64,000 nucleotides of DNA from a virus. Its lineage: Duplodnaviria; Caudoviricetes. Where the stretch lies: the IMG/VR virus record IMGVR_UViG_2885526491_000007, positions 32,001 through 96,000 of that record; one strand, 5' to 3'. The position numbers were made by a program, and so were the translations under genes. Numbering within the stretch: the stretch's first letter is position 1; every line of letters starts with the position of its first letter. Under the pieces are notes generated by a model that ran no database searches, was not told where the DNA came from, and worked only from the letters and a program-made list of their open reading frames with translations. Shown here piece by piece: positions 8,459 to 63,218 of the stretch.

Positions 8459-8505
8459 ATTATACTACCGTTATTCATTATGTCAATATGTATTTTTATT
8501 CTTAA
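8459..8505 (-). promoter_or_regulatory. sigmaA-type promoter with upstream TAAGAATAAAAATA operator-like motif
   Basis: Minus strand TTAAGAATAAAAATACATA-TTGACA-16-TATAAT; same motif at promoters near 14451, 19486, 27406, 43224, 54640, 57977, 63081, 63761 and inverted at 45690/45719. Confidence 0.75.
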
Positions 8506-14402: not shown

Positions 14403-14746
14403 TTAATTAATTCCTCCTTTAGATTCATCTTACCATACATTTTAGTAATTGTACATATTTTTATTCTTAAATAATTCTAATTAAATCAACCTTTTACAAA
14501 GATTCTTGATGATATATTTGCGGCATCGCCAAAAGTTTTAACAAACACGAAATCCAACACCTCGAAATAGCGGTTAAATTGGATATCTGCCCACTTATAC
14601 AACAAGACTGGTTCGGTATATTTTGTAATTCATTGAGATCCATCAGATATGCTTCTGAACAAGTGGTTCCCCTTTTTAGATACTCTATGTAGGTAATACG
14701 TTCCGTTCTCATGTTCAATGACTAGATCCACTCTTTGCACTTTAGT

Positions 14747-19520: not shown

Positions 19521-19883
19521 TCATGTCTTAGTTAGATCTATTTTCATGTAGTCAGCCAACATTACTAGCACATCTGTTCTAACCCTGCTCATTAGTGGGT
19601 TCATTTGATGCTGATATTTACGGATTGAGTAAGAAATAAACAAATTGTCTTTAGTTCTTCTCTGTTCGATGATTTTAATGTCACGGTCTCTTAATGTTTT
19701 CTTCAACTCATATATATCAGCGGTTATTCTATCTTGCAAAGAACTTAAATAAAATTTCAACTCTCTTTTTAATATGACACTGCTCTCATCTATCCTTTTC
19801 TTGTCTTCTTCTATAACGTCTAACAGTAACGGCATCTCAGCATATTTTTTCACCAACTCCAACTCTTCAGCACTTTGTTTCAT
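19521..19883 (-). CDS. YhjD-like protein
   Basis: ELVKKY..MPLLLDVIEED...LRDRDIKI; follows yolD. Confidence 0.6.
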   Translation of the reverse strand: MKQSAEELELVKKYAEMPLLLDVIEEDKKRIDESSVILKRELKFYLSSLQDRITADIYELKKTLRDRDIKIIEQRRTKDNLFISYSIRKYQHQMNPLMSRVRTDVLVMLADYMKIDLTKT

Positions 19884-20233
19884 TATTCTAATCCTCCTCC
19901 CGATAATCTGACAGCAACTAAACTCTTTATGTCGATCCATTCGTGCCCATTTTCCCATTCGATTCTAATCTTCTTTCCTAACTCATTAACCTTTGAAACA
20001 ATCCCACTTACAGCCCGTTTCGAATTCGATTCAAAAATCTCAAAGTATGCTTCTTCAGTATATCTATATGATATTCCTATGTTTTGATAAATAACTTCCC
20101 ATTCGTCCTCGTGTAAAAGTGGTTTAGATAAATCGTTATCTCTTGAACGATGTTCAATGATTCTTTCTTTATGTTGTGGCAGCATCATACGACTTGATTC
20201 CCACAGCCCATTTGCCTCCAGTTTTTTGCTCAT
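19883..20233 (-). CDS. yolD: YolD-like protein
   Basis: SKKLEANGLWESSRMMLPQHKE...KPLLHEDE; coupled to uvrX. Confidence 0.9.
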   Translation of the reverse strand: MSKKLEANGLWESSRMMLPQHKERIIEHRSRDNDLSKPLLHEDEWEVIYQNIGISYRYTEEAYFEIFESNSKRAVSGIVSKVNELGKKIRIEWENGHEWIDIKSLVAVRLSGGGLE

Positions 20234-21474
20234 TTATAGTGTCCTCCAATTTTATTTGATCTGTCTATGGCTTGACCAGCAGATGTAATTGAGCTTGCCC
20301 GTAAGATTGCAATATCTCCAAAACGATCCTTAATGTCATCCATTACCTTATCAATCGCACGTTTTTGTTCTTGATCATCGAACAATGAGAGTTGATAGGT
20401 CTCAGCATTGGAAAGATTGGACAATGATATCCCCACTCTTCGCACAGGCTGACCATCCCAATGTTGCCTAAAGATTTGTTTAGCTATCTTACACACGTCT
20501 ACAGTTATGTTAGTGGGATCTTGCAACTTAACTTGTCGACTGAAACCTGTAGGATGATCAAAGTCTGCTCCCGATAAACTCATTGTAACTACACTACCCA
20601 TTAATCTCTTTTTACGTGCACGTCTACAAACCTCAGTACAGATATCTTGAATGACTACTTCAATCTCCCAAGCTTCTGTATAATCCCTAGGCAGCGTCAT
20701 ACCGTTCCCAATATCCTTTTGTACACTATGAGTATTAATTGTTACTGGAGAGTCATCCAGTCCATTTGCCACTCTCCAAATAACCTCTCCGTTTACGCCC
20801 CATTTGCTTCTCAATTTTGACAGAGGAGTATTCGCAAGCTGTCTTATTGTTCGAATGCCCATTTTCCATAAATGTTTTTCCATCCTAGACCCAATACCCC
20901 ACATATCACGAATTGGTTTATCGCCTATGTGCTGATGAAGCTCTTCTTTTTTAAGGAAGAATACTCCACCTTCAATTTTCTTAGCGATCAGGTCACAGCA
21001 AAGCTTACTCATCACTTTATTTGTTGAGATGCCAGCTCTTGCATAGACTCCCGTTTCATTGTAAATCTTGTCTTGAATCTGCTTTGCTAAATCAATGGGA
21101 TCATTGCCAAAAAGGTGTAGTGATCCTGACACGTCCGCGAAAAGTTCGTCGATGCTATAGGGTTCCACTAAGTCAGTAAACTCCTCAATAATGGACATAA
21201 TTTGAGTTGAAACTTCGATGTATTCCTGCATATGTGGCCTTACAATAATCAGCTCAGGGCACTTTTGAAGTGATTGCCATAATGGTTCAGCGGTTGACAC
21301 GCCTTTTGCTTTAGCTAGAGGACATGCAGCAAGTATGATTCCTGAACGCCTTGCTGGATCTCCTGCAACTGCCAACGGTTTGTTTTTATGTTGCGGCATT
21401 TTAGCCTTTTCTACACTGGCATAAAACGATTGCATGTCAATTAACATAATTGTCCGCTCTTTCTTCGCCATCAT
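20230..21474 (-). CDS. uvrX: Y-family translesion DNA polymerase (UvrX/PolY2-like)
   Basis: IDMQSFYASVE, YSIDE, MWGIG, QLSLF clamp motif; RBS before ATG 21474/21471. Confidence 0.93.
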   Translation of the reverse strand: MMAKKERTIMLIDMQSFYASVEKAKMPQHKNKPLAVAGDPARRSGIILAACPLAKAKGVSTAEPLWQSLQKCPELIIVRPHMQEYIEVSTQIMSIIEEFTDLVEPYSIDELFADVSGSLHLFGNDPIDLAKQIQDKIYNETGVYARAGISTNKVMSKLCCDLIAKKIEGGVFFLKKEELHQHIGDKPIRDMWGIGSRMEKHLWKMGIRTIRQLANTPLSKLRSKWGVNGEVIWRVANGLDDSPVTINTHSVQKDIGNGMTLPRDYTEAWEIEVVIQDICTEVCRRARKKRLMGSVVTMSLSGADFDHPTGFSRQVKLQDPTNITVDVCKIAKQIFRQHWDGQPVRRVGISLSNLSNAETYQLSLFDDQEQKRAIDKVMDDIKDRFGDIAILRASSITSAGQAIDRSNKIGGHYK

Positions 21475-21495
21475 TATCACTCCCGTAGTTATATA

Positions 21496-21539
21496 AGAAC
21501 ATTTGTTTGTATTAGTATTATACACCGAACAGACGTTCT
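21496..21539. promoter_or_regulatory. two LexA/DinR SOS boxes upstream of uvrX
   Basis: AGAACATTTGTTTG (21496-21509) and CGAACAGACGTTCT (21526-21539). Confidence 0.8.
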
Positions 21540-26825: not shown

Positions 26826-27425
26826 ATAGCTACCTCCAATTTTTGATGAAACAGATCTTTTACATAAATATATTTGTGGTATATTTACTCTTAATTATTC
26901 TTCTGTAAAGCATCTAATGCGGATCTCATCCTTTGTACGGTTTCGTCAAGCACTTGCTGCGCCCAATATTCCAGAGGATAGTGTCCAACAAATTCTTCAT
27001 CTTCTTTTAACATCTCAATAAAAGATGAATGACTAATAATGACTCTTACTAAACTTTCCTCTAAAGGTGTTGCATCGGTTATGTACTGGATTAACATTTC
27101 AACAAAAATATGATCGTTCAATGAACTTGTCCTCCTAGCTCTTTTCTATATTTACTATCTGCTATCTCAGGGAAGATTGCTACGAATAAATCTATTACAT
27201 CTAAAATTTTACGTTCTCCGTTTGTTGCAACATAGAATCCAAAGTTTTCACTATGCTTAGTTACTTTTATGCCCAATTCTTCAGCTAATATCATTGTCTT
27301 GTCTAAATCAACTGATTTGATGTCTTTCAATTTATGTATCGCCTCCTAATTAAAGTAGTGGTATAACAACTTGTTAAAGTCATCATACCACTACTTTTAT
27401 AATTTGTACATATATTTATTCTTAT

Positions 27426-42925: not shown

Positions 42926-43265
42926 TAATTAATTTTATCTCCCTTTGTGTATATGTATTTTTGGATTGATGTCTCTTTGGCTAATTCAGTTACATCGGAG
43001 GACTTCTCAATCTGCTCGTCATATGTTTCACCACCTTTTCAGAGTAAACTTGCTGCCTCTATATAATCACGCTTAGCGTGTTATTTTATTCTCCGTCATT
43101 CTTTCATATACTCTCGCATGCTTCACTTTTCAAGCAAAATTTCTTGATGAAACTATTACTTCATCAGCTTTTTTCGTGTTAAGCACCTCATATATCCATT
43201 ATATGCATACATTATCATTTTGTAAATATGTATTTTTATTCTTATTTTGTTGCCGGGTGATCCGG

Positions 43266-43634
43266 CTACAGAAAATACCCAGTAAAACTATTAAATTTAA
43301 CATTTGGGTCTTTGATGTGATAAGTATATATAGTAATTGGATCAATGCAATTCAGTTTGCTTAACTTATCACTATTGATGCGCTCTTGAAATAGGCGCTC
43401 CAATGCCATAGGCGGGTTTACATTGTAGGCTTCTACAAACTCATTTTGCGACCTGTAGCGCGTTTCTGAGATCTTCTGAAATCTATACTGCATAAGCCAA
43501 CTGTTAATTTGCTTCCCATTCATACCGCTGCACTGTCGTACAAATTCTTCGTTGTTTCGATAGTCTTGAAAAAAGAAATTAGCTATAGTAATAAGTCCTA
43601 TCGACTTCTTATCAATATTCAAGGTGTTTTTCAT
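43266..43634 (-). CDS. hypothetical protein
   Basis: GAGG RBS; 122 aa. Confidence 0.6.
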   Translation of the reverse strand: MKNTLNIDKKSIGLITIANFFFQDYRNNEEFVRQCSGMNGKQINSWLMQYRFQKISETRYRSQNEFVEAYNVNPPMALERLFQERINSDKLSKLNCIDPITIYTYHIKDPNVKFNSFTGYFL

Positions 43635-43816: not shown

Positions 43817-43830
43817 AGAACTTGTGTTCG
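43817..43830. promoter_or_regulatory. LexA/DinR SOS box
   Basis: AGAACTTGTGTTCG. Confidence 0.7.
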
Positions 43831-43926
43831 TATTCCTAATTATACAACAATTTATGAGTTAGTCAAAGTATATATACCATTTGGCAACATATTTTATTAC
43901 GTATTTTTATTCCTTATAGGTTGATA

Positions 43927-44307
43927 TCACTTCTTGCCAAATAACTTCTTAAAATACTCTTTTACAACACTCTTTCGGGAATCTCCTATGATCTCTATGT
44001 AATCGTTCGCCTGTACATCAAAAAACATCTTACCTTTTTCATAGTCAATATGTTCTGCATGATATAAGTTACCCATTCTACCACGATCTACAACGACTAA
44101 TCCATGATGCTTGTGCATCAAATGCATGATTGCATCATTGCTTGTACAATAAATGAAATCTCCCCCATCAGTATGAAAAACAGTCTTATATTCCTTTTTG
44201 CCATTGATCAACTCTTTACTTGAAGATTTGATATCAACAATCTTTAACCATTCGGCTTCATCATTTATTTTTTTTCCCTCTTTCCTCTGGACAATAATGT
44301 GATCCAT
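43927..44307 (-). CDS. stand-alone LytTR-family DNA-binding protein
   Basis: FHT..G......L....GLVVVDRGRMGNL..AEHID..KGKMFF; no receiver domain. Confidence 0.7.
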   Translation of the reverse strand: MDHIIVQRKEGKKINDEAEWLKIVDIKSSSKELINGKKEYKTVFHTDGGDFIYCTSNDAIMHLMHKHHGLVVVDRGRMGNLYHAEHIDYEKGKMFFDVQANDYIEIIGDSRKSVVKEYFKKLFGKK

Positions 44308-44332
44308 TCTATTACACCTCTTTTGATAAATC

Positions 44333-44360
44333 TGCCCTCCACATTTTAGTGCAGAGGGCA
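44333..44360 (-). terminator. stem-loop between agrD and lytTR
   Basis: TGCCCTC...GAGGGCA inverted repeat. Confidence 0.55.
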
Positions 44361-44366
44361 TTGTTA

Positions 44367-44501
44367 TTATTTTAATTCTTCAGGTACTGGCTCATTGTGA
44401 ATCAATGTCCAGCTTGCAGTATTAACGCCAGCTACAGCAATAGCTGTCAGCAAAAATCCAAATGCAGTCATACCAAATTTCATCATTTTAATTTTATTCA
44501 T
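44367..44501 (-). CDS. agrD: AgrD-type cyclic lactone autoinducer precursor
   Basis: MNKIKMMKFGMTAFGFLLTAIAVAGVNTASWTLIHNEPVPEELK; AAAGGAGGTGA RBS; overlaps the agrB stop; below the ORF-track cutoff. Confidence 0.9.
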   Translation of the reverse strand: MNKIKMMKFGMTAFGFLLTAIAVAGVNTASWTLIHNEPVPEELK

Positions 44502-45027
44502 TCCTATCACCTCCTTTCAAGCGAATCAAAAGGAGACTTTGAGCAAACATCGAACAACTGATAATGGGGTCTCTTATTAAAGCTCCCACTAGTACCGTAA
44601 GAATTGCTATGTACTTTAAGTATATAAAATATTTACTAAGAATCTTTGTTTGGTTCTCAATATTTGATGGTGCGAAGATTGTCACCAATATTAAAGCTGC
44701 TATAGAAAATATCCATTCTATACCTTCAAATAAATTTCCGAATGTCGCAATTGTCAATATCAGTATGCTTGAGTAAATCAAACATATCTCAGGGTATTTG
44801 CTGTGATATCCTCCAGAAGAAAGCCGCAGCGCAGAAAATGACAGAATACTGATTAAAACATTATTATAAATGTTAAACATCAAACCCACAAGTAACAATA
44901 ACATGATAGGTAAGATATTTGAAACAATAAACTTTATTCCGTATCTGGTGATCCCATATGGCGGCAATTCAGTCGGAAAGCGATCAACTAATTTTCGTGA
45001 AATATTGTTTACATAATTATCTATCAT
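44494..45027 (-). CDS. agrB: AgrB peptide-processing membrane protease
   Basis: LRLSSGGYHS...C catalytic motif, FAP, multiple TMs. Confidence 0.93.
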   Translation of the reverse strand: MIDNYVNNISRKLVDRFPTELPPYGITRYGIKFIVSNILPIMLLLLVGLMFNIYNNVLISILSFSALRLSSGGYHSKYPEICLIYSSILILTIATFGNLFEGIEWIFSIAALILVTIFAPSNIENQTKILSKYFIYLKYIAILTVLVGALIRDPIISCSMFAQSLLLIRLKGGDRNE

Positions 45028-45668
45028 GCCAACTCACTCTTTTCCTTAACAACATCAATGAATATAATATTGATTAGACATATTAACCAGAATAACAGTC
45101 CTAGGTATACATTCTCAATTTGCTTTACATTGTATAATATCACTACTGCCAACAGACCCAGAGTACAACTGATAATATTTGTTTTATTGAGTTTAATTTT
45201 AAACGTATAATCATATGGTAGTGTGGTGTACCAAATTCTTCTTTTTTGCAAAATTAACGTTAGAGCTATTAGAAAACCATCGCCTATCAATTGAATGTAC
45301 ATCCCGAAATTTTCAAGAGTATAAGTATAGCCTGATCCAGAGGCCACCATGATTAAAATGGCTATTATCATTTGAGAAACAAATTGTGCTCCGAATCCGT
45401 AAATTGCTAACTTAACACTACTCCAAGGTCTTATCCGAAAGTAAAATGTAAGTGATATAGCCAGTAACAGAAAACATATGATGGGAATAAAACTTGATAT
45501 TGCTTCATTGGACTTCATGTAAAAAGTGCCTATTGAGATAACTACGTTTGTGACTAATATTTCCTTCCAATAATCTCGAAAACTCACTTTAAAACAACCA
45601 AAGGCGAACATAAAAATTGTAATACCATCTAATAAAGACATTAGTGCATAAATCAGATCGTTTTTCAT
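45024..45668 (-). CDS. polytopic membrane protein resembling an AgrC sensor domain without a kinase
   Basis: About 6-7 TMs, 214 aa, ATGA-coupled to agrB; no H-box or HATPase motifs. Confidence 0.7.
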   Translation of the reverse strand: MKNDLIYALMSLLDGITIFMFAFGCFKVSFRDYWKEILVTNVVISIGTFYMKSNEAISSFIPIICFLLLAISLTFYFRIRPWSSVKLAIYGFGAQFVSQMIIAILIMVASGSGYTYTLENFGMYIQLIGDGFLIALTLILQKRRIWYTTLPYDYTFKIKLNKTNIISCTLGLLAVVILYNVKQIENVYLGLLFWLICLINIIFIDVVKEKSELA

Positions 45669-45689
45669 TTCATCTTGTCTCCCACTGTT

Positions 45690-45748
45690 TAAGAATAAAT
45701 ATATGTATTTGATAAACTAAGAATAACATGCATTTATTAATAAGTCAA
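45690..45748 (-). promoter_or_regulatory. promoter of the agr-like operon with two operator-like motifs
   Basis: Minus strand TTGACT-17-TATTCT; TAAGAATAA motifs on the plus strand at 45690 and 45719. Confidence 0.6.
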
Positions 45749-45785
45749 ACACTTTTATAAAAAAAAGAAGAATAAAGGATTAACC

Positions 45786-46811
45786 TTATTCTTCTCCATA
45801 AAACTTCTCTATATTTTCAATGTTTAAAAAATCTGCCTTTAGTCTTCCATACGAGATTTCACCATTTTTACCTATGCCTACATTATATTGCCTCAACACT
45901 TGCTCATAGTCTTCCTTACCCAACTTTTTGTCATTTTCATAATACAACTCACTAGCCAACTTTAGCATCCCACTGTTTCGTATGTTCGTCGCAGTTAACA
46001 TTGGTAACTGGTACATTTCAGCAATCCTGGCTATCCTTCTGTTTATTAGCGCTGGAGCAGATGGAGTATTACCAGAAGATTTTGTGCGTGCGTTTTCGGC
46101 AGCTCTTATTATATAGTCAGTCTTGACTAGATAATTTTTGTTGTTTCTCATTCCTTCAAAGTCAAGGCCATTATTCTTAAAGTATATATCCTCGTCATTT
46201 GCTATTCGCATTATATTGTACAAGTCAGATGTAACCTTCAGAGTTCTTTCTTTGTTTCCATCAACAGTTTCATTAATCAAGCGAACATTGTAGTGATCTG
46301 GATCATCATTTATTTCCTCAAAGAATTTCATTTTTAATGTTAAAAGCTCACTATATTGTCTACCATAGATTCCTTCGTATAGACCAAGTATTACCGCTTT
46401 ATCTTGATAATTTATACATTCGTCAACAACATCTTTCTTAATTTCAGTGTAACTAAAGAGTGTTTGCTCACTCGTGTCCAAAAATTGTTTATAAAATTCT
46501 CCAGACGCAACTGCATCAAGTGGATTTATGTTGTCAGTACGAAGATCCTGTTCAATAGCCCATCTTATATAATTTTGAATAATATTGCCTGAATGCATTA
46601 CAGTACTAAGTTTAGTAGCCTTTAGAATAAACAATAACTGTTTTATTTCATCTAAATTAAAGTCATATAGGTCTTTTCCAAGTTTGTTTTCTATTTTTGC
46701 AGCTCTCAACAATACTCTGCTATATGCTTTTTTTGTTGATTCAATTTGATCTTTTAAGTACCTGCTCTTTTGATTAGGATTGTAGAACTCCTCATAATAT
46801 ATCTTGTTCAT
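45786..46811 (-). CDS. MrpR/YopR (SroF)-like lysogeny repressor, integrase fold
   Basis: FYN...K..YL...E..LGKDLYDF...YI.WAI...INYQDKAVI..LYEGI.G..YSELL.L matches the SPbeta YopR pattern. Confidence 0.85.
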   Translation of the reverse strand: MNKIYYEEFYNPNQKSRYLKDQIESTKKAYSRVLLRAAKIENKLGKDLYDFNLDEIKQLLFILKATKLSTVMHSGNIIQNYIRWAIEQDLRTDNINPLDAVASGEFYKQFLDTSEQTLFSYTEIKKDVVDECINYQDKAVILGLYEGIYGRQYSELLTLKMKFFEEINDDPDHYNVRLINETVDGNKERTLKVTSDLYNIMRIANDEDIYFKNNGLDFEGMRNNKNYLVKTDYIIRAAENARTKSSGNTPSAPALINRRIARIAEMYQLPMLTATNIRNSGMLKLASELYYENDKKLGKEDYEQVLRQYNVGIGKNGEISYGRLKADFLNIENIEKFYGEE

Positions 46812-48702: not shown

Positions 48703-48930
48703 ATGTCAAGTTCTAATACTAATTGGTGGTTTGAGATCACGCTAGAGCAAATTCTTGCTTCAAAAGATATATCTAAAAGAGAGCTGTCTAGGCTAACAGG
48801 AATTAGACATTCTACTATTAATGATTTATGTAATAATAAGGTCAAACAAATCCCTTTAAGTAATTTAGCTTCTATATGTGAGGCATTAAATATTACCAAT
48901 TTAAACGAGCTAATTAAACTACATAAGTAA
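48703..48930 (+). CDS. XRE/Cro-type HTH regulator
   Basis: ISKRELSRLTGIRHSTINDLCNN...LASICEALNI. Confidence 0.92.
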   Translation: MSSSNTNWWFEITLEQILASKDISKRELSRLTGIRHSTINDLCNNKVKQIPLSNLASICEALNITNLNELIKLHK

Positions 48931-48934
48931 TAGA

Positions 48935-49303
48935 TTACATTTGTAAAGATATTGACAATGCTTTACTTATTGGCTGTTGAAATTTTTCTGGAAGAGTAGC
49001 AATTTTAAACTCTAATTGATCTTTGGATATTGTCATTATCTGCTCTAATAGAATAATACTGTCGTCATAAAGTTCAATCTCATTTGCCTCTACTCTAACA
49101 TGAGTTGGCATTGGCTTTTTTACTTTGCTTGTAACTGGAGCCACAATAACCACTGGACTAAATTTATTTCCTTTATCATTCCCCAAAACAACTACTGGTC
49201 TTTCTCCGCTTTGTACACTACCTTTATTTCTTCCTAAATTAGCATTCCACATATCAAGTCGTTTAACTTCTTTATTCATAATTCGATCCATAGCCACTGC
49301 CAT
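48935..49303 (-). CDS. mazF: MazF/PemK-family endoribonuclease (orphan)
   Basis: GSVQSGERPVVVLGNDKGNKFSP..IVAPVTS...PTHV...DSIILLEQI.TISK, close to Bacillus NdoA/MazF. Confidence 0.92.
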   Translation of the reverse strand: MAVAMDRIMNKEVKRLDMWNANLGRNKGSVQSGERPVVVLGNDKGNKFSPVVIVAPVTSKVKKPMPTHVRVEANEIELYDDSIILLEQIMTISKDQLEFKIATLPEKFQQPISKALSISLQM

Positions 49304-53310: not shown

Positions 53311-54191
53311 TAGACAGACTCCTCTTAGCTGTTTTTTGGGAATGAAACAGTCATTTGATTAAAACTGACTAAATTTATCTTTCAGGTAAAAGTTTCCGAG
53401 TTTGAATTCATACATATCTCTATCGATTTCTCGTATCTTTGATTTGTGGAGCATAATAGTGTATTTTTCGTCTTCTTCAAATTCGTATACTCGTACAAAA
53501 TCATCATTCTCTTTTGCTACCTCAAAGAAAAACACCTTGTCTCCCATCCCTCTGTTTTCATCTTTAGGGAATACACATGGTAGTTTAATCATAATATCCT
53601 CCTCCTAAATTGCTTATAAAATAGTTATTTGATTATCTTCTAACATTAGTTAACCACTTTAAAATTAATTTCAGCCAAATCATGAACATTCACCAATACT
53701 GTCTCACTGTCTACAGTAACAAATTCAATGAATTCATTCACTCCAGTTCTAAAGGCTTTATTAATCGCTGCATATACAAAGTCTTTAGCATGCTCTGCCA
53801 TAATTTCAATAGTTACCTTGTCATCAAGTCCGAAGTCTGTCTGATAATTTCTTTCCGCTCCACTCTTATACAATAAAGAAATCTTGGTTTTCATCTATTT
53901 TTCCTCCGTTCTGTTAATGTTTATATTCATAATCCATCTAGAAATGTTGGAGTTGTAAGTACTAAAATAATAAGAATACCAGCAGTTAAGGCAAATGATC
54001 CAGCTTTAGAATATTCTCTATTCTTAAGGGCAACAATTGAACTCACCAATGTATAGATTCCCCCCAACAAATACCAATAATAAAACATTCTTATCCCTCC
54101 TCTGTTTGTATGAAATAAACCTTTCACAACCATATGTATAACATGTCGCCGCAATCTACAATACTATTATACGGCGACATAATAAAGATAA

Positions 54192-54527
54192 CTAGGTAAG
54201 ATTCATTATCTCTTCTTCAATTTCTTTGAATCTAGCCGTAGATACCGATGCCTCTTTACCCTCACTGAACACAAGCTTTCTGTTCATTGGATCAATTCTT
54301 TTGACTTTCTTTAGGTTTACAGCAACCCCACCATCAGAAACCTTTAATTGTCCTGTATCTGTTAGATACTTAACAAATTCTGTTTCACTAAGTATGCGGT
54401 ACTCACCATTTTCTGTTGATACTTTTTGTATTGAACCGTTATTGCCTGATCTTACAATATACTGTACTTCATCTACACTTATCATCTTTACTTCCTTAAT
54501 TTCTATATCCATTACAGGAATATTCAT
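54192..54527 (-). CDS. second stand-alone LytTR-family protein
   Basis: IS.DEVQYI...TENGEY...VNLKKVKRID....LVF.....SVS..RFKE. Confidence 0.7.
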   Translation of the reverse strand: MNIPVMDIEIKEVKMISVDEVQYIVRSGNNGSIQKVSTENGEYRILSETEFVKYLTDTGQLKVSDGGVAVNLKKVKRIDPMNRKLVFSEGKEASVSTARFKEIEEEIMNLT

Positions 54528-55031
54528 TATGTTTTCACCTCACATAGAGATATAGTTTTTCTCATTTACAATACTAAGTTACTGTTTCGAGTACGCTGTT
54601 TCCTTATATATGAATTATATCATCATATTATTACTTTTACAATATATATTTTCATTCTTAAAAGAGGCGATTGTTAGTCACCTCTTTAGTTGCTCACTTA
54701 TATCTATGTATTTGTGCTGCTTCTTTAAGGGTAATCCATTTTCCGCTCCGATTCATAACCCATAGTGTCCCATCTGCAAAGCGTCTCCCATGCTTAAACA
54801 TTGTAATAGTGCTCTTTTCCTGTTTCTTGTACAACTACGTTGATGTGTTGTCTTAATTGACTTGTGAGAGCATAAACACGATCCATGAGCACATAAGCCA
54901 TAGTATCTTTGCAACGTCCCTCTTCTTTAATAGAATCTACAACTTCTCCATTTGCTATCAGGTTATAAGTATTCATTAATAATTTCCTCTTTTCGTATTT
55001 TTATTGTTTAAATGATTATAAAAGACTTATT

Positions 55032-57730: not shown

Positions 57731-58041
57731 TAAAGATCAACTCCTTATGAAATTATAGTTTCATTTAAACTGCCACAGTGATAGGTGGAGCGATTACTAT
57801 GATATTCTCATCCTCTTCACAAAGGGATTTGAAAAGTTGCTGCTGTTCTTCTGTAGGAAATCCATATGTATTGTATTCAATTTTATCAAGTATCTTTTCA
57901 ATTACAAGAACCTTGTACACGACAATCACCTCATCTATTTGATAACCTTATACTATCACATATTTTAATTAATGTATACATATATTTATTCTTAAATGAT
58001 GAAAAAGAGATGCTTTAATGCATCCCCTGTTATCTCACAAC

Positions 58042-62943: not shown

Positions 62944-63218
62944 CGTGTATCCCTCCATTTCTATGTAAAATCGTTGTTTCACTTAGTCTTATGTATCGTT
63001 ACAGCACATTGTTTCTTTTGCTGGTACATCGTTTCTTACTTCCTGATCTAATCATAGCATCATAACACTATAATTACAATACATATTTTTATTCTTATTG
63101 TGTTTAATTTCATTTAACAATGAAAATCCTTGATAAAAGTATCATACTGAACTAGAATAATCCTATTGCATGAACTAGTACTTTAGGAGGAGCAGTACAC
63201 TATGTTTACTGATGCTTT

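Follow-up and report, generated by a model that had tools for sequence, protein, structure and literature searches.

The 64,000-nucleotide stretch of DNA analyzed here (the window; bases 32001-96000 of IMG/VR record IMGVR_UViG_2885526491_000007, a 134,573-bp provirus that is rated complete by CheckV) carries a four-gene agr-type cassette, in which a membrane protein with seven transmembrane helices (7-TM or TM protein), the peptidase/cyclase AgrB, and the peptide precursor AgrD are combined with a stand-alone LytTR DNA-binding protein, and which has neither a kinase nor a receiver domain. The cassette is not unique to this phage but a member of a widespread chromosomal and phage family. Our explanation, plausible though short of probable, is that it represents a prophage-borne member of a large, experimentally untouched agr-type family that works without a phosphorelay, and that its 7-TM protein gates the LytTR protein and thereby tunes the maintenance or induction of the phage. 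A preliminary description of the locus had proposed a phage communication system with a cyclic peptide, possibly replacing arbitrium in the lysis-lysogeny decision; overall, this interpretation is partly supported.

All parts of the operon named in the preliminary description, i.e., a membrane protein gene, agrB, agrD, a stem-loop, and a LytTR gene, were recovered on the minus strand (Table 1). The AgrB translation contains R-x3-G-G-x-H and a Cys seven residues past the His, so that the catalytic dyad is intact, and the start of agrB overlaps the stop of the TM gene. AgrD, whose assignment as a precursor with a Ser-type five-residue core is borne out by a TIGR04223 score above the cut-off, comprises 44 amino acids (aa) from the ATG, or 47 aa if the GTG at 44510 is used, and reads ...NTA-SWTLI-HNEPVPEELK. 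The true start of the LytTR protein is MDHIIVQ, which is preceded by a GAGG ribosome-binding site; the listed 144-aa open reading frame (ORF) reads through the hairpin. Three signals are conserved across the loci, namely, the terminator after mrpR, the TTGACT/TG-extended -10 promoter 5' of the TM gene, and the hairpin 5' of the LytTR gene. Hairpins of differing sequence occupy the same position between agrD and the LytTR gene in seven loci (z -2.4 to -4.8), and a short U-containing run follows. From sequence, the hairpin is predicted to be a leaky terminator or a processing site, which should keep LytTR substoichiometric to TM, AgrB, and AgrD: the strong promoter of the cassette would transcribe the 7-TM gene, agrB, and agrD, and only part of the transcripts would be passed on to the LytTR gene.

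In agreement with the preliminary description, neither an AgrC-type HPK10 kinase (HATPase_c_5, PF14501) nor a Response_reg domain (PF00072) was detected in the whole provirus, and hence no AgrA-type receiver was recognized. The proposed stand-alone LytTR protein likewise held up. The 126-aa protein has no direct Pfam match and only five near relatives, all from Paenibacillus, to which an exhaustive profile search added 28 further, more distant proteins of the same length; PF04397 is matched by 18 of the 32 aligned relatives (best E value, 3.4e-7). A first AlphaFold model, based on 6 close homologues only, was unusable (predicted local distance difference test [pLDDT] of 43) and was superseded by a model from the 32-sequence alignment with a pLDDT of 88.9. 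The Foldseek top ten of this model are all LytTR domains (AgrA, ComE, and a Bacillus cereus LytTR), VIA-align against the same structures gave middling Z scores of 5.3-6.1 for residues 55-125 but specific matches, and the best 30 clusters in the ESM-Atlas are all LytTR clusters. The LytTR profile found chance matches only among PDB sequences. Judged by its relatives and its predicted structure, the 126-aa protein is a divergent stand-alone LytTR protein.

With respect to the peptide, the AgrD cores across the prophage loci are SWTLI, SWTLV, SWTIV, SWTVI, SWFLL, and SWLLI, with Ser-Trp in all of them and a His after the ring in most; the loci with the NTASWTLI core and tail in common have the highest TM identity. 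In the AgrD of the cassette, the first ring residue is Ser, and past the ring come a Pro at +6 and a Glu-Leu pair at +8/+9. Since S. aureus AgrD has Pro and Glu-Leu at these positions as well, SWTLI is predicted to be the ring and Ser to be its nucleophile. AgrB would then cut AgrD after the Ile by means of its His/Cys dyad and close a five-residue ring via the Ser hydroxyl; the peptide of S. intermedius is cited as a Ser lactone in PMC12180512. The leaders of the family resemble Sec signal peptides with small residues right before the Ser (VNTA, VSTA, VSVA, and MPA), and because the leader ends at this point, in ...NTA for the current AgrD, the mature product may be a short-tailed lactone, and a tail-less product is possible. 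In the latter case, the N-terminal Ser ester could rearrange by an O-to-N acyl shift to a head-to-tail lactam, i.e., a cyclic pentapeptide, by analogy with the S-to-N acyl shift reported for clostridial peptides.

Table 1. Genes and signals of the cassette and the adjacent repressor module, in the order of transcription (positions refer to the window)
Feature	Position	Strand	Basis
YopQ-like DndB/DGQHR-domain protein of phage lysogeny modules, 441 aa	46813..48138	-	PF14072 1.5e-9, TIGR03187 1.9e-9; syntenic in all related prophage loci
MrpR-like master-repressor homologue, 341 aa	45786..46811	-	PF22822 1.4e-24, PF22823 1.4e-17
Intrinsic terminator closing the YopQ-MrpR operon	45764..45797	-	14-bp stem, then T-run; conserved in 5 loci
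Cassette promoter, TTGACT, 17 nt, TG-n-TATTCT (extended -10)	45720..45748	-	-35 and extended -10 conserved in alignment of 5 loci
Leader element, inverted copy of promoter-associated motif; inverted repeat with 43224-43244	45690..45710	.	Score reached by <=5/300 shuffles in 6/10 loci; positions conserved
7-TM membrane protein, 214 aa, no kinase domain	45024..45668	-	phrog_15604 'membrane protein' 7e-7; obligate AgrB neighbor
AgrB peptidase/cyclase, 177 aa	44494..45027	-	PF04647 70 bits, E 2e-19
AgrD precursor, 44 aa, predicted Ser-closed ring SWTLI	44367..44501	-	TIGR04223 28 bits (cut-off 19); orthologous peptides in 8 loci
Hairpin between agrD and LytTR gene	44333..44360	-	11-bp stem, -18.8 kcal/mol, z -3.8
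LytTR DNA-binding protein, divergent and stand-alone, 126 aa, lacking a receiver domain	43927..44307	-	Profile relatives, model, Foldseek, VIA-align, ESM-Atlas
LexA-box promoter, TTGACT, 16 nt, TATAAT, driving the p122 gene	43818..43866	-	LexA (Cheo)-type box CGAAC-N4-GTTC just 3' of the -10
p122, conserved 122-aa protein, core partner of MrpR-type modules	43266..43634	-	No Pfam or PHROG match; follows MrpR with or without cassette

Distribution in Paenibacillus and other phages

The TM family was surveyed with a TM profile over 93 Paenibacillus species genomes, and about 60 loci were inspected with home-built hidden Markov models (HMMs). The profile recovered about 100 genes in 47 of the 93 genomes, with up to six genes per genome. 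No kinase or receiver was found beside TM in the inspected loci, where the kinase HMM, a single-sequence model that recovered only two sensors, is a weak test. Most of these loci consist of TM, AgrB, a small AgrD-like ORF, and then either a LytTR protein of 111-153 aa or a larger receiver-less LytTR protein of 228-249 aa; in the case of locus L043 we read the larger protein, of which Pfam matches the C-terminal half only, as a tandem LytTR. When all AgrB genes of five genomes were considered, 24 of 25 were paired with TM, and the lone exception was a canonical agrB-agrD-agrC-agrA locus, in which AgrD carries the ICFGLF core known from the published Pp-AIP (PMC12180512). The ring position is Ser or Thr in all TM-type precursors, never Cys. 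The pairing, together with a canonical exception that lacks TM, indicates that TM and AgrC are mutually exclusive and that TM goes with Ser-type peptides.

The family contains several variants. A conserved chromosomal TM-AgrB-AgrD locus next to rsmD-coaD (L039, L045, and about ten more) has the near-invariant peptide end ...ASYVYVYQGDTPEELLK and no LytTR gene. A second precursor class (L043, L053, L055, L062, L081, L082, and others) is characterized by a basic leader, cores like K-S-I-V-G-A or K-T-L-F-G-A, and a tail ending in P-x-x-L-K-K-K; it is accompanied by a TM variant of 235-240 aa and mostly also by a 228-249-aa LytTR protein read as a receiver-less tandem LytTR. Directly 5' of many chromosomal cassettes (L014, L043, L044, L050, L055-L059, and L081-L087) a YolD-like gene is located (PF08863 4.7e-22 in L044). 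The cassette of L014 lies beside a holin/amidase pair and thus within another prophage, and L099 (G027:C31) represents a variant prophage order, MrpR-AgrB-TM-LytTR (170 aa), with TM and AgrB swapped.

The complete order YopQ-MrpR-TM-AgrB-AgrD-LytTR-p122 was found in at least ten distinct Paenibacillus prophages, down to about 30% identity. It is present in Paenibacillus sp. NPDC057886, P. barcinonensis, and Paenibacillus sp. QZ-Y1, in five further Paenibacillus genomes, in three IMG/VR contigs of 128-204 kb (one being the P. barcinonensis prophage again), and in a metagenome contig whose LytTR protein is only 37% identical. Outside Paenibacillus, gp44-47 of Brevibacillus phage Abouo show the same four-gene layout between the integrase and repressor genes, and hhalign relates gp44 to the TM family (97.8%) and gp47 to the LytTR family (87.9%). 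Hargreaves et al. 2014 (PMC3901668) devoted a single sentence to the agr-like layout of the Brevibacillus phages Abouo, Davies, and Emery; they noted membrane proteins without a kinase domain and did not mention the LytTR gene. A literature search found no paper describing the TM-AgrB-AgrD-LytTR unit.

Role of the 7-TM protein

The TM protein has no Pfam or NCBIfam match, nothing comparable was found among PDB sequences, and the ESM Atlas returned unnamed clusters only. The positive-inside rule predicts seven helices, an outer N-terminus, and an inner C-terminus. The outer loops are short, the fourth being the most variable, and the cytoplasmic loop and tail are conserved and basic. Two intramembrane glutamines, Q99 and Q126, are invariant in 55 TM sequences, among which neither a protease-type motif nor conserved catalytic-type residues were found. 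In our explanation, the 7-TM protein, together with AgrB in the membrane, would most likely be the peptide-responsive part and would hold or release the bare LytTR protein without phosphorylation, as streptococcal membrane inhibitors do.

The preliminary description had assigned peptide sensing to the membrane protein, and this assignment could not be substantiated; a role as a partner of AgrB has about equal support. Several observations weigh against sensing by TM. Similarity of TM to the AgrC sensor of the P. polymyxa-type locus was no better than the reversed-sequence control in hhalign comparisons with 10- and 55-sequence profiles, and fused TM-kinase forms were not found by a word-based search, which is a weak one. 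The link of TM to AgrB is closer than that to LytTR: AgrB directly follows TM in every inspected locus, with translational coupling and mostly with overlap of the two reading frames, one genome has TM and AgrB naturally fused into a protein of 379 aa (L039:3457-4596, minus strand), and at least 12 TM-AgrB-AgrD loci with the core SYVYV, located at rsmD-coaD, lack LytTR. Pairwise identities among ten prophage loci point in the same direction, with TM tracking AgrB at r 0.95 and LytTR at r 0.80; LytTR identities track MrpR and p122 slightly better.

The tight link to AgrB would suit a different role, which we regard as somewhat unlikely, namely, that TM is a partner of AgrB, i.e., a scaffold or exporter for making or exporting the Ser-type peptide, and not a receptor. 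LytTR would then be an ordinary transcription factor of the cassette, and sensing of the peptide would take place elsewhere, through a host component or without any involvement of the phage. The strict occurrence of TM with Ser/Thr-type AgrD, and its absence from the Cys-type canonical locus, also fits a role in biogenesis. However, the missing catalytic-type residues do not, and the AgrB/FsrB enzymes that make Ser lactones in Staphylococcus intermedius and Enterococcus are not known to require a TM-type partner. The identity correlation does not decide between receptor and partner, because the AgrC sensor domain of canonical agr likewise covaries with AgrB and AgrD. Moreover, a partner role leaves the receiver-less LytTR protein that follows most cassettes without an input. 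The receptor role is slightly ahead of the partner role, by a small margin. In its favor, a LytTR protein without a receiver needs an input, and TM is the only other membrane component, replacing AgrC throughout the family; the predicted topology, the two invariant glutamines with no protease-like motif, and the precedent of the streptococcal LytTR regulatory systems (PMC6193735) also count for a receptor.

Relation to the phage switch

The provirus is SPbeta-like with respect to its MrpR-like repressor, its YopQ-like partner, and a genome size of about 130 kb. The module that contains the cassette runs from 48138 down to 43266 with every gene on the minus strand, and the earlier placement of the cassette beside YopQ/MrpR-like genes is confirmed by the PF14072, TIGR03187, and PF22822/PF22823 matches immediately upstream. 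The 5-kb module DNA had no match in the phage collection, and an Rfam scan of 42.5-50 kb detected no RNA family. On its other side, the cassette ends about 60 nt before the TTGACT-16-TATAAT promoter. A LexA (Cheo)-type box, CGAACACAAGTTC, comes after the -10 of this promoter, and 12 of 13 related loci have retained it, among them the contig without TM-agrBD. This position between the master repressor and a LexA-box promoter leading to p122 and the replication genes is, from sequence, suggestive of a role in the phage switch: the LytTR protein would act on nearby phage promoters, and the cassette, given its location between the MrpR-like operon and this entry into the early/replication genes, would tune maintenance or induction by the density of related lysogens or infections.

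The same kind of site is also typical for morons, and other observations caution against such a role. MrpR-like genes are present at 20 loci in 19 of the 93 genomes, and the cassette lies immediately downstream in 9 of the 20 loci; it is thus optional in MrpR-type prophages and not a core switch. The analysis yielded no LytTR binding site, and the sole RNA run found, a soil metatranscriptome, has two 251-nt contigs, both on the mrpR-like gene. In ten inspected agr-less MrpR loci, other genes or nothing, and no LytTR gene, are located between mrpR and p122, which indicates that the four genes form one accessory unit in a variable slot. LytTR alone was found at an MrpR locus in a single metagenome contig (L007); the idea derived from it, that LytTR is a core gene of MrpR modules into which TM-agrBD was inserted later, was rejected in view of the ten agr-less loci, which have no LytTR gene either.

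Accordingly, the cassette might be a moron or lysogenic-conversion module that serves the lysogen, by host quorum signaling, kin recognition, or interference with the cassettes of competitors, and plays no part in the decision of the phage, which we consider clearly unlikely. Several points speak against such a module: the cassette recurs at the same regulatory position in at least ten SPbeta-like prophages, an unrelated Brevibacillus phage has it among the integrase and repressor genes, it lies next to a conserved LexA-box promoter, and its leader contains, inverted, a motif of other phage promoters. On the other hand, the optional insertion between mrpR and p122 agrees with a moron, as do the sigma-A-type promoter of the cassette itself, which the terminator 3' of mrpR insulates, the largely chromosomal location of homologous cassettes with up to six per genome, the PHROGs category 'moron' of the TM family, and a second cassette with a different peptide in the hosts of two relatives. 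The jamming of a host Agr system, which the preliminary description had offered as an alternative, is not required: the only AgrB in the host of one relative (G001) is that of the prophage. That the cassette is an inactive remnant is hardly credible: nothing specific favors it apart from stop codons in some chromosomal copies elsewhere, while none of the four reading frames is disrupted, the catalytic dyad is present, and promoter, ribosome-binding sites, and hairpin are conserved over loci at 30-80% protein identity.

The leader motif just mentioned belongs to a repeated element. The motif GAATAAAAATACRTA (two mismatches at most) has 14 copies in the window, where 1.3 would be expected, with 13 copies on the transcribed strand (sites include 8487-8501, 14452-14466, 27407-27421, 43227-43241, 57977-57991, and 63080-63094). 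Several copies abut a -35-like hexamer, in some cases a weak one, and GAATAAAAATACRTA looks like an upstream element shared by one class of phage promoters. The LexA-box promoter has a copy on its upstream side, a second copy abuts the promoter after p122, and the sole inverted copy is located in the cassette leader, which explains the inverted repeat at conserved positions in 6 of 10 loci, i.e., a leader element downstream of the cassette -10 that is repeated in inverted orientation after p122. The LytTR protein is a candidate reader of GAATAAAAATACRTA, and no more; its candidate target sites are the cassette leader (45690-45710), a stretch 5' of the LexA-box promoter (43898-43912), and the promoter that follows p122 (43198-43241). 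The 9-mer AAATACATA was ruled out as a region-specific operator, as it is part of a longer motif abutting the -35 of many phage promoters. A GAATAAAAATACRTA-like copy at 54643-54657 was also found upstream of a second stand-alone LytTR protein (54527..54192, minus strand; 111 aa, PF04397 27.5 bits). The 75-aa ORF that follows (54154..53927, minus strand) reads as a small two-helix membrane protein, a gene order as in streptococcal LytTR regulatory systems.

Some further features of the region were recorded. The only other LexA-type box in the window (21526-21538, plus strand) lies 5' of a 431-aa ORF (21525..20230), which is followed by a YolD-like ORF (20233..19883); we take this pair to be an SOS-regulated UvrX/YolD-type polymerase pair, as in SPbeta. 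The repressor module is headed by a PemK/MazF-type toxin gene (49303..48935, minus strand; PF02452 1.4e-24) and a 75-aa XRE regulator (48703..48930, plus strand); in SPbeta, the product of yopM, a gene of the same operon, acts on MazE/MazF of the host (PMC10516654). A perfect 29-bp inverted repeat (43727-43755/49414-49442) with TTGACA in each arm brackets the PemK-XRE-YopQ-MrpR-cassette module; it is kept at 86-90% in the close relatives L002 and L048 and was not found in more distant relatives. The palindrome RTVAAA-N6-TTTBAY has 40 sites in the window (4349 to 62982) versus 1.25 expected, and none between 40536 and 50027, i.e., the regulatory and replication region is free of them. The palindrome may correspond to the SPBRE sites that are bound by MrpR in SPbeta (PMC10516654).

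An intact arbitrium elsewhere in the phage that fully accounts for the decision would have spoken against the preliminary description, and no full AimR match was found in the whole provirus: the sole match of the AimR model NF038310 is the helix-turn-helix of a 75-aa XRE protein, with 18 bits versus a cut-off of 70. AimR was absent from all 93 Paenibacillus genomes, including 11 MrpR-type loci without the cassette, and the B. subtilis control was positive. Of the survey that the preliminary description had suggested, synteny and peptides gave a clear outcome, with the same gene order in at least ten prophages and varying cores, whereas mutual exclusivity of cassette and arbitrium is uninformative in Paenibacillus because AimR is missing from the whole genus sample. 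In SPbeta, aimRPX is located upstream of yopM-R (PMC10516654), unlike the cassette, which lies downstream of mrpR. A bolder version of our explanation, improbable as it stands, holds that in SPbeta-like Paenibacillus phages and, independently, in Brevibacillus phages an AgrB-bound 7-TM receptor senses a Ser-derived cyclic pentapeptide without phosphorylation and directly gates a bare LytTR protein, which acts beside the LexA-controlled early promoter, making induction or lysogeny dependent on the density of kin phages; the cassette would then be a second, mechanistically unrelated counterpart of arbitrium.

Comparison with known systems

Known peptide signaling in Gram-positive bacteria relies either on two-component phosphorelays (agr, com, and blp) or on imported peptides with cytoplasmic RRNPP receptors, including arbitrium. 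A widespread agr-type module with neither phosphorelay nor imported-peptide receptor would be a third wiring. The current cassette sits at the regulatory heart of large temperate phages, with the master repressor on one side and an SOS-controlled promoter on the other, and if it indeed feeds the phage switch, communication between phages would be broadened beyond arbitrium, with four genes and a five-residue peptide as a tractable system. If the 7-TM protein instead proves to be a partner of AgrB, a missing component of autoinducing-peptide biogenesis for Ser-type peptides would have been identified.

Canonical agr systems (agrBDCA of S. aureus and the Pp-AIP locus of P. polymyxa, PMC12180512) share with the cassette the AgrB His/Cys dyad, the five-residue ring segment and acidic x-P-x-E-L tail of AgrD, and an output protein with a LytTR fold. 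The cassette differs in lacking the AgrC histidine kinase and the receiver domain of the LytTR protein, in the unrelated 7-TM protein 5' of agrB and the resulting order TM-B-D-LytTR instead of B-D-C-A, in a predicted Ser instead of a Cys as ring nucleophile, and in being phage-borne. The Brevibacillus phages Abouo (gp44-47), Davies, and Emery have a comparable agr-type layout in the lysogeny region of a temperate phage, but AgrB identity to Abouo is only about 30%, the peptide core is another one, and Abouo is a 45-kb phage with an integrase/CI-type switch. Phage phiCDHM1 of Clostridioides difficile (agrBDC, PMC3901668) is likewise a temperate phage with agr genes for signal production; it has a true AgrC kinase and no regulator, whereas the cassette has a LytTR protein and no kinase.

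By layout, the streptococcal HdrRM and BrsRM systems (PMC6193735) are the working analogy for the output side, as they also combine a receiver-less LytTR regulator with a membrane protein and dispense with a phosphorelay. In these systems, however, the regulator gene comes first, the membrane inhibitor is small, and genes for peptide maturation are missing, whereas the 7-TM protein of the cassette is coupled to AgrB/AgrD. Arbitrium (AimR-AimP-AimX) of the SPbeta-group Bacillus phages resembles the cassette in placing genes for peptide communication by the yopQ/mrpR module; its linear imported hexapeptide, its cytoplasmic tetratricopeptide repeat receptor, and its position upstream of yopM-R are three respects in which the cassette of the Paenibacillus prophages differs.

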